NCBI GenBank assembly: GCA_951406725.2
Contig: OX597826.1
Coordinates: 70,122,001-70,186,000 of the forward strand
Reading direction: 5' to 3'
Length of the DNA: 64,000 nucleotides
From: Octopus vulgaris
Taxonomy: Eukaryota
The position numbers were made by a program, and so were the translations under genes. The notes under the pieces are model-generated. The model had not been told where the DNA came from and made no database searches. It worked only from the letters and a program-made list of their open reading frames with translations. This document shows, one piece after another, positions 33,391 through 63,420 of this stretch; position 1 is the first letter of the stretch; each line of letters begins with the position of its first letter.

Positions 33391-33580
33391 TGACTACGTG
33401 TGTATCGTTGTCGATTTATTCCCTCCGTCTTCCCTTCCTTGGATCTTTCCTGACGAAGAGCTCCGCTCGAAACGTTAAATCCTCCTTTCTTTCCTTTCCT
33501 GAGCCTCCAACTATACTATACTTGCTCCACGTCCTCGCGTTGTTGTGTTTTCTCTTCGTGTTTTCATGTTTGGATTAACT
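33391..33580 (+). mobile_element. Hammerhead-bearing non-autonomous element P1 (Penelope/retrozyme-like), copy A
   Basis: CTGACGA-AGAGC-tcc-GCTC-GAAA-cg-tt at 33450-33476; (TA)n on both sides; homologous to 39934-40141, 57704-57882 and 63193-63420. Confidence 0.8.
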
Positions 33581-34169
33581 ATATATATACACGGAGTAAC
33601 AACAAATCCGTTGCTTTCTCGCACTTTCGTTTCTCCATTTCTATCCTTTGTCTAGCTCTACTTTTGTATATCCTTTGCCCTTGGTTCGTCTTCGCTTCGA
33701 TTTCCCTCTTAAAACGTTTTATAAAGCTCAAACAGATCGAGTGAAGAGACGAAATTATCTATTTGAAGCCAAGAAAGCGAAACTTATCAATGCAATTGGG
33801 AGACAATACAGTTAGAAGCATATAATGAATAATTATGATAACAATAGCGAGAGAAAACAATTTTATTAATAGAGTGATATCCGATGATGTTTTCCATCAA
33901 TATAATGAGCGAGTCGTGTCGTTTTGTGCATAAACGTAGACCTGTGTGTGTGTTGCGTACAGTTTTAGGATTAAATAGTTACAGATGATTTGATTGGTTG
34001 AAAAGCTTGTTCAAAACTCTACGCTGTTGATGTCACTCTGTATCTGGTTTTGTTTCTGAATATGCGCTGTACGACTAGGCTTTCTCTTCTGCGGGTCTTA
34101 CAAATAGCAAAGGACCACGTTTCGGACTTCTCCCATCTTGCGAGCTCTGGGACGATGACCGTTCGCTCA

Positions 34170-34387
34170 ACAGCAACAGCAACACCAACACCGACTGTCA
34201 AGCGGTGATGAGGATGGGGGTACAAATACAGACACTCACACACACACATACATATACACATAAAATATACGACAGGTTTCTTTCAGTTTCGGTCGGTCCG
34301 AGGCTATAGTAGATGACACTTGCCCAAGGTGTCACGCAGTGGGACTGAACCCGGTTGGGAAGCAAGCTTCTTACCACACAGCTACGC
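34170..34387 (-). mobile_element. SINE family 1, partial
   Basis: ttctttcagtttc...cacttgcccaaggtgtcacgcagtgggactgaaccc. Confidence 0.85.
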
Positions 34388-35229
34388 TATGAATGAGTGT
34401 GTATACTTTTGCTAGTTTTCAAAAGAAAAAGGGGTCTCAACACCACCACCACTCACCTCTACTACCCCCTGCCCCACGGTCATTGAGGGGATGTAAAGGA
34501 TGTAGATAAGCTGTGTATAATTGCTTCGACGCACCTATTATAACAATTACTCGCCTGTCCAGCGCTGACCATTTCTCACCTTTTGTTATTGTTGTTGCTC
34601 TGTCAGGTGTGTATTTTTGTTGGTCTTTTCCAGGTTTCAAGATATCTTTGAAATACACTGTATGTACATATGTATGTATATGTATATACATATATATGTG
34701 TGTGTGTGTGTGTGTATAGAAATGTGTATGCGTATGTCTACGTATGAATTGTACTATGTATGTATAGAAAAATGATAATACCTGAATATTTTTTTTGATC
34801 TACCTGATGTGTTAACTTAATTGTACACACGCGCACGCACACACACACACATACACAGGTATATGCAGGCCTTCTGTCTTGTTCTCTTGAGACGAAGCTA
34901 CCAAACAGGTCAAATACAACTCACCTCCCTTCCAACTTCCACCCAAACAACTATCATCAACACCTCCACTGTCGCCACCTATATTACCACCAACACCATA
35001 GAAAAGAGAGAGAGAGAGAGAGGGGTTAGAAATTAAATGGCTTTTTCCCACTTCTCCCTTTTTCCACTTTATATATATATATATATATATATAATATATA
35101 TAATAACAAAATAATAAATAAAACATGCATATATACATACATATATGTACATACCTACATCTATATGTATATATACATACATATATGTACATACTGACAT
35201 CTATATGTATATATAGATGCATATCTGGG

Positions 35230-35402
35230 TACAGGACACCACAAAAAAAAACGTAGAACACAATGAGAAACGAAAACATAAAAACAAAAACATAGAAACG
35301 AACTTTTTTCAAACAACGAAAAAACAGAGTACAAGACATACAACGCAAGGAATATTCCCCTTCTTCAGTTGTCCCTGTTTCGACTACTCCGTGTTTCGAA
35401 GC
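35230..35402 (-). mobile_element. Probable Penelope-type terminal-repeat fragment between microsatellites
   Basis: Minus strand cgaaacacggag...ctgaagaagggg followed by a long U-rich tail, the same architecture as P1/P2; no complete ribozyme core. Confidence 0.35.
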
Positions 35403-35420
35403 TATATATATATATAATAT

Positions 35421-35845
35421 GGGCGCAGGAGTGGCTTTGTGGTAAGTAGCTTGCTTACCAACCACATGATTCCGGGTTCATTCCCTCCCACTGCGTGGCA
35501 CCTTGGGCAACTGTCTTCTACTATAGCCTCGGGCCGACCAAAGCCTTGTGAGTGGATTTGGTAGACGGAAACTGAAAGAAGCCTGTCGTATATATGTATA
35601 TATACATATATATATATGTATGTGTGTATATATACTTGTGTGTCTGTGTTTGCCCTCCCTACCCAATATCGCTTGACAACCGATGCTGGTGTGTTTACAT
35701 ACCCCGTAACTTAGCGGTTCGGCAAAAGACACCGATAGAATAAGTACTAGGCTTACAAAGAATAAGTCGTGGGGTCGATTTGCTCGACTATAAAGGCGGT
35801 GCTCCAGCATGGCCGCAGTCAAATGACTGAAACAAGTAAAAGAGA
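35421..35845 (+). mobile_element. SINE family 1, full length
   Basis: gggcgcaggagtggc ... aaatgactgaaacaagtaaaagag. Confidence 0.93.
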
Positions 35846-36589
35846 AATATATATATTTATATATTCTCTTTACTGCGACCTCATACGTGCCCTTCCGTCT
35901 GTTTCGTCCCCCCTCTCTCTCTCTCTCTCTCTCTCGCTCTCTCTCTGCCCATCCTCACCCTCCCTTTACTTTCAAGCCACGTAGCGTAACGAGGTAGTAA
36001 GGGGTGGGTTATTAACCTACGCTTTAAATGTTTGACCTCTCTTTCTCACCTTCTTCGTCTCTCTGTCTCTTTCTCCCTTCCTCCCTTCCCCCTCTCTCGC
36101 TCCAAGTAACAAGTTAGTTTAGTTGGAAGTCAAAGCCGAGAGGAAGACCATCTCTCTACTCTACTGTTCCGTTCTCACACACATACATCAAATAGCTACA
36201 CACACACACATACACATACACACACACACACATATACATACACACACGTAAACACACGGCGCGTGCGCAAGGGCTTTAGACGTAGTAATGCAGAATAAAA
36301 GGGGAAAGAGAAGAACCGAGATGTGACAATGGGGAAACGAGAGGGGAAGTAAGAGGCTGAAAGACCAGTGAATGGACGTGAAGAGATGGGTGGGAGGTGT
36401 CGTTAAGTGTGTGTGAAGTGTTAACAAATAAATAGTTCCCAGATACATACCTATACATCTCTCTCTTTCTTTCTCTCTCTCATTCCCTCTCTCTCTCTCT
36501 CTCTCTCTCTCTCTCTCTCTTTCTCTGTATATATATACATATATATATATATATATATATATACATGTGTGTGTGTATTATATATATTC

Positions 36590-61564: not shown

Positions 61565-62165
61565 TCTTCTCCTTCTTCTTCTTCTTCTTCTTCTTCTTCT
61601 TCTTCTTCTTCTTCTTCTTCTTCTTCTTCTTCTTCTTCTTCTTCTTCTTCTTCTTCTTCTTCTTCTTCTTCTTCTTCTTCTCCTCCTTCTTCTTCTTCTT
61701 CTTCTTCTTCTTCTCCTTCTTCTTCTTCTTCTCCTTCTTCTTCTTTCTGAATTTGACATTGGGTAAATTGATGAAACACTAGAAGCTGGTAATCAGATGG
61801 TTATGGTTTCAAATTTGCTCTCTTTCTTTCTTTTTTTCTTTCCTTCTCTCTTTCTTTACTTCTTTCTTCAATCTCTTTTCTTTCTTGCTTTCTTTGTTCT
61901 TGTTTTTCTTTTTTCAAATTGTCATTGTTCATTATTTCTTCTTCTTCTTCTTCCTTCTTCTTCTTCTTCTTCTTCTTCTTCTTCTTCTTCTTCTTCTTCT
62001 TCTTCTTCTTTGTCGTTCTTCTTCTTTTCTTCTTCTTCTTCTTCTTCTTCTTCTTCTTCTTCTTCCTTCTTCTTCTTCTTCTTCTTCTTCTTCTTCTTCT
62101 TCTTCTTCTTCTTCTTCTTCTTCTTCTTCTTCTCCCGTCTTCTTTCGTCATCATCATCATCATAA
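61565..62165. repeat. Two long (TTC)n tracts
   Basis: Direct: 61565-61745 and 61937-62135. Confidence 0.97.
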
Positions 62166-62459
62166 TCCTCATCATCTTGATCGTTGTTGTCATTATTGCC
62201 ATTTTAATTTGATGCAGAAGTGTCAGCTTCCTTCAAGATGTCGGGTGGCGATGATAATTGTTGGGTGGCGTTGAGTAGGTGGGTGTATGCGTTGGCTGGT
62301 GGGGGGTCGGTGGACAAAACTAGCCGTGTATTCGACAATATTATATTAAGGTTGTATGGCAGTTTTTATGTATGGGTGTCTTCGTATATGATTATAAGTG
62401 AATAGACACATATATTTCCATACATATGTGCACGTGTGTGTGTGTGAGTATATCCTTCC

Positions 62460-62830
62460 ACTGGTTTCTGTCGTTAGACTGCGGCCATGCTGGTGCACCG
62501 CCTTGAATTTTTAGACGAATGAATCGACCCCTGTACATACCTTATTTTTTAAAACCTGGTACCTCTATTGTTCTCTTTGGCCGAACCGCTATGTTATGCA
62601 TACATAAACACACTAACGCTAGTTGTCGATTGGTGATGAGGGACAAACGCACGCACAAACACACACACATACACACACAACGAGCTTCTTTCAGTTTCCT
62701 CCTATCAAATCCACTCACAATGCTTTGGTCGACCCCAAGCTATATTAGAAGATACTTGCCCAAGGTGCCTTGCAGTGGGACTGAACCCGGAACCATGTGG
62801 TTGGGAAGCAAACTTCTTATCATGCAGGCA
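62460..62830 (-). mobile_element. SINE family 1, diverged
   Basis: gactgcggccatgctggtgcaccgcc ... gggactgaacccggaaccatgtggttgggaagc. Confidence 0.88.
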
Positions 62831-62889
62831 CAACTAACGTATATACATGTATATATGTGTATGTATATATATATCTTAGCTTAGATTTT

Positions 62890-63085
62890 TAGGACTAGCC
62901 AGATTTGAAGAGTCTCAAGTGTAACTGGCCGAAACTGTAAGGATAATTTGGAAACTTGACGGATGAGAGAAGACTGCGAATGACCCGTCCTTGTTTTTTC
63001 CTGTCCGTCTTTGTATCGTTTATTTGTTCGGTCGTTTTATTGTCGTCTGTTGCGTTCTTGTTCCATTTTTCCGATTTATATATAT
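62890..63085 (+). mobile_element. Probable further Penelope-type terminal fragment (related to 57510-57620)
   Basis: Both loci share gccgaaa...gac(t/g)ga(a/t)ga...gaatgacccgtc followed by a U-rich tail and (TA)n; core ttgaaga...ggccgaaactgta is degenerate. Confidence 0.35.
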
Positions 63086-63192
63086 TAAACGATACTAAGC
63101 CCAACTACACACATACATAAACAACCACACACACACACACACACACACACACACACACACAGACCTGCGCGTACGCACATACACACACATAC

Positions 63193-63420
63193 CTCCTTCT
63201 CTTGCACGGTCATTTCAATATGTGACCGCGAGTGTATCGTTGGCGATTTTCTTTCTCCGTCTTCCTTTCTTTGGACTTTTTCTATATTTCCGATGAAGAG
63301 CACCGCTCGAAACGTGAAATACTCTTTCTTTTCTTTCCTTCCTGAGCGTCCAATAACACTGTACTTATTCCACGTACTCGCGTTGTTGTTTTTTCTTGCT
63401 TGTTCATGTTTGGATTGACT
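63193..63420 (+). mobile_element. Hammerhead-bearing element P1, copy D (longest)
   Basis: TATTT-CCGATGA-AGAGC-acc-GCTC-GAAA-cg-tg-AAATA at 63285-63321; 3' end abuts (TA)n. Confidence 0.8.

Follow-up and report, generated by a model that had tools for sequence, protein, structure and literature searches.

Short hammerhead-bearing repeats of Octopus vulgaris as solo ends of Penelope-like elements, possibly arising by run-off copying

Penelope-like elements (PLEs) that encode an endonuclease (EN) are bounded by pseudo-long terminal repeats (pLTRs), and a 2014 study reported PLE ends with hammerheads, dispersed one copy at a time, from across the animals (PMC4209133). Here we analyze a 64-kb stretch of the Octopus vulgaris genome (assembly GCA_951406725.2, contig OX597826.1, positions 70,122,001 to 70,186,000; hereafter the window), whose second half holds eleven hammerhead-like sites in short repeats, most of which are solo ends of ordinary PLEs in TA microsatellites. 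As in the EN-bearing PLEs described previously, direct repeats surround an open reading frame (ORF) for a reverse transcriptase (RT), a CX2-5CxxC linker and, at the C terminus, a GIY-YIG domain, a hammerhead lies within the repeat, TA microsatellites are favored, many copies are truncated or solo, and both tandem and inverted arrangements occur (PMC8557442, PMC3846280, PMC2377424). The octopus solo copies differ in that they are not truncated at random but share a sharp 5′ wall, and chimeric copies are joined at that wall. An earlier note on this DNA had instead proposed several families resembling short interspersed elements (SINEs), with a ribozyme as their head, mobilized by a Penelope-type RT. 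We favor, with a probability of roughly 0.7, a reading in which the family P1 is the pLTR of a Cys-linker PLE, the family P2 forms the 3′ end of another, related PLE, both carry a minimal hammerhead motif, and the solo copies are likely run-off products. P1 and P2 are thus further families of the already known PLE pLTR type.

Searches covered the genome from which the window is taken (2.8 Gb, 227 contigs). P1, P2, P3, S (the family of the motif at 57973) and the 38879 family denote repeat families, and L-numbers denote extracted genomic loci. P1 yielded 2007 first-look candidates, and 600 kb of arbitrary genome stretches held 10 matches, one of them a diverged relative, which extrapolates (Poisson) to roughly 22,000–86,000 copies in the genome. 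At one locus two P1 copies were separated by a spacer, and a search with this spacer returned 25 loci, of which 11 were chosen because matches to PLE proteins follow the spacer downstream. In 8 of these 11 loci (examined as 8-kb stretches), P1 copies bracket the PLE coding region, on the same strand and 3.1–6.0 kb apart, one downstream copy being partial. The intervening ORF has an RT with YIDD (Pfam RVT_1, E = 1e-4) and a GIY-YIG domain (E = 0.002), both Pfam matches being below curated cut-offs, and between the two domains a CX4CX2C linker. Given this placement on both sides of RT-EN ORFs, and a window copy (core at 63290) that keeps part of the 3′ untranslated region (UTR), we read P1 as the pLTR of a Neptune/Nematis-type PLE, the clade being assigned by the Cys linker that joins RT to EN, a mark of these clades (PMC8557442, PMC3846280). 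The hammerhead occupies +78 to +110 of the ~205-nt unit, and copies start ~100 nt upstream of the predicted cut site; the ribozyme of P1 is therefore in the middle of the unit and is not its head. None of 29 solo copies runs on into the 5′ UTR, and one reaches into the 3′ UTR.

P2 gave 2600 first-look candidates and 8 matches in the same 600 kb; together P1 and P2 reach ~30 per Mb (18 matches), a SINE-like appearance. Longer P2 copies are preceded by a 3′ UTR and, before it, by sequence coding for the linker and GIY-YIG domain at L039, L055 and L109 (by tblastn, whose input was 7 of the 29 P2a loci plus L109) and at L043 (by DNA similarity), while at L202 RT coding sequence lies further upstream. 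The P2-linked ORFs contain a CX4CX2C linker. P2 accordingly reads as the 3′ end (pLTR) of a PLE related to that of P1, known here from the downstream side of the ORF. The link to PLEs drawn earlier is thus upheld by P1 on both sides of the ORF and by P2 after RT/GIY-YIG coding sequence, and the ribozyme-headed SINE reading fails for these two families.

Another PLE family, at L091–L098 and L101, is young, with a Cys linker and an upstream ORF1 (~460 aa); many of its copies keep the 781-aa RT-EN frame intact. It was considered as the coding partner of P1 and P2 and rejected, having an end of its own with a U3-A8 hammerhead (U3-A8 replaces C3-G8 in 28 of 30 copies), a 30–40-nt tail and (TA)n targets. 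This family is a good candidate for in vitro work.

The letters quoted for the eleven sites are present at all eleven coordinates, and ten of the sites belong to high-copy families laid out like minimal type I hammerheads, the exception being 38879, which does not have the full core. The features are as follows.
33388..33579, plus strand: P1 solo pLTR; core at 33450; a deletion has damaged the 5′ strand of stem I; flanked by (TA)n at either end
39931..40140, plus strand: P1 solo pLTR; core at 40008; helix III palindrome broken
57705..57879, minus strand: P1 solo pLTR, starting at about +28; U4C in the core, at 57829; palindrome broken; a long (TA)n follows at the 3′ end
63085..63419, plus strand: 5′-truncated P1 element; ~120 nt of PLE 3′ UTR (63085-63207), then the pLTR; core at 63290
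36808..36996, plus strand: P2b 3′ end (pLTR) of the related PLE; U6 in the core, at 36868; one of the two copies that pass the strict descriptor
39486..39656, plus strand: P2a 3′ end (pLTR); U6 in the core, at 39534; palindrome broken
54266..54444, minus strand: P2a-like 3′ end; core at 54388, decayed
57881..58075, plus strand: S, a 5′-truncated copy (~0.65 unit) of a 303-nt non-coding unit; core at 57973; palindrome one change from the family's 8 nt
40157..40404, plus strand: P3; hammerhead near the 5′ end, long stem II; passes the strict descriptor
60621..60726, minus strand: P3 fragment; core at 60698; G10.1 and palindrome lost
38787..38894, minus strand: separate old family; right half of the motif only (GAAA, 8-nt palindrome, UA), no complete core

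The 3′ UTR portion of the 63290 copy matches that of a longer copy at 76%, and the G at position 17 of the 63290 hammerhead breaks the NUH rule. A strict descriptor (core, stem II of at least 4 bp, GAAA, palindromic helix III, NUH and stem I of at least 3 bp) passes two of the eleven copies, 36868 and 40164, and gave no match in any of 100 dinucleotide shuffles of the window. The remaining copies are mostly decayed: palindromes are broken at 40008, 57829, 39534, 57973 and 60698, stem I is partly lost at 33450, and the core is altered at 54388. Two of the earlier groupings do not hold, since 38879, assigned to P3, is a member of a separate old family whose window copy lacks G8-A9 and has an unpaired stem I, and 57973, listed as a singleton, belongs to a high-copy family with 1620 first-look candidates. 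Overall, the ribozyme-headed SINE reading fails at seven of the eleven sites (P1 and P2), may apply at three (S and two P3), and at one the motif is not a full hammerhead. An Rfam scan of the window returned no hammerhead family among the matches listed (150 of 342), with microsatellite-driven miRNA models dominating; no PLE protein remnants were found in the window, and no tRNA genes at 33–64 kb (ARAGORN).

At the level of families, the majority forms of P1, P2, P3 and S all have a stem I of 4–5 bp, a core of the CUGANGA type, a stem II, GAAA, a helix III that is palindromic, and the NUH triplet, in agreement with the minimal Penelope-type hammerhead suggested earlier. The core C3-U4-G5-A6-N7-G8-A9 and GAAA are kept in the P1, S and P3 majorities; P2 has U rather than A at position 6 in 53 of 62 copies. 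Of 100 copies of P1, 92–93 retain the four stem I pairs and 86–98 the stem II pairs, and 31 have all features together. The palindromic helix III loop is present in 84/100 P1, 41/62 P2, 33/53 S and 12/28 P3 copies, S and P3 having 8-nt palindromes and stems that differ in sequence, and position 17 is other than G in 95/100, 62/62, 51/53 and 28/28 copies, respectively (A 27, C 18, U 17 and G 0 in P2). In an alignment of 11 rows, 93.4% of hammerhead pair cells were paired versus 25–39% for slid structures, 0 of 500 shuffles scored as high, and 6 pairs showed double changes, three of the double changes coming from one row; as the rows are related, we take this result as supportive rather than as a probability. 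Judged by these sequences, hammerhead pairing holds across families with different letters. For P1, P2 and the window copy of P3, folding of monomers did not favor a hammerhead, and for a young retrozyme control (L206) it did not favor stem I; monomer folding was therefore not taken as a test.

The minimal hammerheads that Cervera and de la Pena (2014; PMC4209133) described in PLEs of metazoans likewise have a helix I of 4–5 bp, an extra base between positions 9 and 10.1, a G10.1-C11.1 pair, a palindromic helix III and a U3-A8 variant, and occur mostly as single genomic copies. The octopus motifs differ in a P1/P2 stem II of 4 bp, compared with 7–8 bp in Schistosoma examples, in the family-wide U6 of P2, and in the long stem II domain of P3, with an extra A before GAAA. 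More intact hammerhead families with a long stem II occur at L208:5092(-), 5753(+), L069:208(-), 455(+) and L096:999(-), those at L208 and L069 being inverted pairs. A PLE 3′ end at L081 carries, ~300 nt past the ORF stop, a hammerhead-like motif with an A-U 3-8 pair (by eye) that the descriptor missed.

The association with TA repeats is confirmed, and the insertion bias toward them supported, by microsatellite enrichment at both P1 flanks. In 27 copies picked by their 3′ end alone (from a set of 29, with a long copy and an inverted one set aside), a TA, CA or TG microsatellite lies within 25 nt on the 5′ side in 21 and on the 3′ side in 24, against a background of 12.7%; for pure TA the counts are 14 and 19, against 5%. 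The microsatellites on the 5′ side support insertion into pre-existing TA/CA arrays. P1 and P2 3′ ends are fixed at an element-encoded TATATA, the autonomous 781-aa family likewise ends in (TA)n, and the pLTR of full-length elements runs on as TTTATATACC, so that the priming site itself would offer TATATA for pairing with a nicked target. The content of (TA)n is 5.4% in the motif-bearing half of the window, 1.6% in the first half and 3.3% in the 600 kb of arbitrary stretches, and this difference probably explains the local density of hammerheads.

For the 5′ ends of P1, positions are counted from the A of the initiator-like TCATTC (+1). Among 57 copies unselected for 5′ extent, 41 start at −5 to +30, 15 start downstream of +30, and 1 aligns more than 30 nt upstream (2 if a split window copy is included). 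P2 has a similar wall at −6 to +15, many of its alignments being broken by T-runs. Four of the P1 copies starting beyond +30 (L273, L274, L237 and L278) begin within ~5 nt of the predicted cut site; they were considered as a cleavage footprint and left unused, being few and two of them starting 2–3 nt upstream of the site.

At 13 loci a pLTR directly follows a 5′ part of the element. The join falls at −3 to +4 in nine of these chimeras (exactly at +1 in five); three others keep 26–48 nt of native 3′ UTR, and in one the join is at +47. The nine have at least 7 distinct internal breakpoints; three of them, the P1 chimeras L114, L125 and L135, have a common breakpoint (455–458 of the 5′ part) and may be one event, which leaves at least seven independent joins. 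These three loci are possibly an amplified non-autonomous mini-element of ~690 nt. At L197 (~6600–7050, minus strand) an intronless mRNA copy, apparently of ribosomal protein L32, is fused by its poly(A) directly to a 5′-truncated PLE, and this looks like template jumping by a PLE RT.

The fixed P1 start likely marks the place where the element RNA starts. Consistent with this, the Penelope transcript is described as starting inside the upstream pLTR from an internal promoter (PMC2377424), and for the element PAc internal RT initiation on a template spanning the pLTR-ORF junction, cutting of AT-rich DNA, and a hammerhead that is protein-assisted and not needed in vitro were reported (PMC11167929). 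Single minimal hammerheads have been called "probably related to truncated PLEs" (PMC4209133). Taken together, the fixed starts, the chimeric joins at +1, the internal start of the Penelope transcript and internal initiation by PAc suggest that solo pLTRs are run-off copies of the RNA 5′ end, and that chimeras and new pLTRs come from template jumps at this end. Under such a model, RNA would start at the initiator-like +1 inside the upstream pLTR, and GIY-YIG would nick (TA)n DNA, the nicked end pairing with TATATA at a pLTR 3′ end within the RNA. If priming took place at the upstream pLTR, the RT would reach the RNA 5′ end after ~205 nt, and integration would yield a solo pLTR with two fixed ends. 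Should the RT jump from the RNA 5′ end to another RNA position, pLTR-[5′ part]-pLTR chimeras would result, and new tandem pLTRs would probably arise in this way too. Cutting by the hammerhead would require a dimer or the aid of protein, and the hammerhead would seem to be dispensable for solo and chimera insertions.

In long terminal repeat (LTR) retroelements, minus-strand strong-stop DNA is a short cDNA that begins at an internal priming site, extends as far as the RNA 5′ end and can jump templates. The octopus case would resemble it by analogy only and would differ in that nicked target DNA would prime and the short product would integrate. The fuller proposal, that PLEs make target-primed strong-stop cDNA which mostly integrates as fixed-length solo pLTRs and through some template jumps rebuilds the pLTR, is advanced tentatively, and we hold it to be a little short of an even bet.

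Several observations weigh against our reading. The +1 position is set by copy ends and an initiator consensus, and the boundary region reads ATGTG/GTGTG, which could favor 5′ joins to TA/TG targets by microhomology. Among the upstream pLTRs of run-on copies, 7 of the 18 that can be aligned carry at least 46 nt of 3′ UTR, so tandem insertion also makes pLTRs and a single route does not account for all of them. P2 was not observed on the upstream side of an ORF, where no search for it was made. Helix III of P1 and P2 has only 4 bp (−1.7 kcal/mol), and stem I of their monomers has a low predicted probability (0.02–0.23). Finally, a solo pLTR with its own promoter, copied in trans, could look identical to a run-off product.

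This last possibility, that solo pLTRs are transcribed alone and copied in trans as pLTR-derived SINE-like families, is close to the idea of the earlier note and is the strongest competitor, unlikely as we consider it. It would account for the fixing of both ends of solo copies and for their large excess over ORF-linked ones (0/29 into the 5′ UTR, 1/29 into the 3′ UTR); in rotifers, pLTR sequences sufficed for mobilization in trans (PMC3846280), and the common breakpoint of L114, L125 and L135 may reflect one amplified non-autonomous derivative. However, the P1 sequence is that of the pLTR of coding elements, and chimeras that join the +1 end to the 5′ UTR need RNA of the full-length type in the same reaction. 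Somewhat less likely again are ordinary 5′-truncated insertions primed at the downstream pLTR, with the wall arising from TA/TG microhomology or a block to the RT. This is the standard account (PMC8557442, PMC4209133), and it agrees with P1 and P2 copies that reach varying lengths into the 3′ UTR and with the 15 of 57 P1 copies that start downstream of +30. Yet the CA/TA-rich 3′ UTR just upstream should offer more microhomology and is reached by only 1–2 of the 57 copies, and 9 of the 13 chimeric joins fall at −3 to +4 with partners that are not microsatellites. An origin by recombination, as for solo LTRs, with the two pLTRs of a full-length insertion as partners, was proposed for some rotifer solo pLTRs (PMC3846280) and would give similar starts, as 8 of 18 alignable upstream pLTRs begin at −7 to +33, but it is highly improbable, since it requires tens of thousands of two-pLTR precursors, leaves the chimeras unexplained and is at odds with 3′ UTR in 7/18 upstream pLTRs vs 1–2/57 solo copies.

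Should run-off copying of the strong-stop kind be correct, it would explain how pLTRs come to be regenerated, so far an open question; it would also mean that one step in the life of the autonomous element has left tens of thousands of repeats that look like SINEs in this genome as by-products. A concrete and cheap test of the run-off and template-jump model is offered by the fixed wall at the 5′ ends and by the chimeras joined at +1, and a natural test of whether the ribozyme must cut by the family-wide U6 of P2. The recently active repeats of an octopus repeat annotation include 893 "unclassified SINE" families, and the annotation's main text has no occurrence of "hammerhead" or "ribozyme" (PMC13282606); some of these families may, at a guess, be pLTRs. 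We found no paper on these octopus families or on a strong-stop origin of solo pLTRs in a search that did not extend to Repbase and most subscription papers, which may already name such families.

The non-autonomous idea, which fails for P1 and P2, may hold for S and P3. S is a 303-nt, head-to-tail, non-coding unit of 35% GC with a fixed 3′ end and one hammerhead each. Partner searches for S, P3 and the 38879 family used five in-genome PLE proteins as tblastn queries, all of Cys-linker types, so a Penelope/Poseidon-type partner of any of these families could be missed. No contiguous ORF was found with these queries in 52 S loci, a sample in which a rare partner would be missed; PLE matches at L170, L301 and L313 were read as separate insertions (L170 and L301 by eye). 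With metazoan non-LTR retrozymes (PMC7229834; bioRxiv 10.64898/2026.07.22.740005) and non-autonomous PLEs such as MRC1 (PMC8557442), S has in common the ~300-nt monomer, the GC content, the head-to-tail order and a single type I hammerhead per non-coding unit. Unlike these, S copies are mostly shorter than 1.2 units, the longest reaching 1.8; in 5 of 52 loci a second hammerhead lies one unit from the first. S is known here from genomic DNA. We consider S probably to be a retrozyme-like or MRC1-like non-autonomous element, most likely a retrozyme-like passenger of the same PLE machinery; P1 and P2 are not retrozymes. P3 is old (70–85% identity among copies), with the hammerhead within ~20–40 nt of the usual 5′ end, a stem II domain of roughly 50–65 nt and inverted pairs in 5 of 54 loci. 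No ORF link was detected in these 54 loci with the five queries, and P3 is most likely an older passenger or the pLTR of some other element. For the 38879 family (22 matches), the same queries gave no contiguous coding partner.

A young inverted-plus-tandem array at L206:2300-4600 (G000:C1:20000001-20010000), in an arbitrary stretch, has 353–359-nt units with identical intact hammerheads (7 motifs) and is, by its layout, a true retrozyme-type insertion. Two further repeat families lie in the window. One, absent from the earlier note, is built like those described above, with copies at 57511-57645 and 62876-63080 (both plus strand) that have GAAA, a palindrome-like stretch, a pyrimidine-rich tail and a TA end; its 5′ core is degenerate, and it is abundant, with 11 matches in the 600 kb. 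In the other, at 35221-35405 (minus strand), GAAAC precedes CTGAAGAAG, the reverse of the type I order, and a TA/CATA repeat lies at the end.

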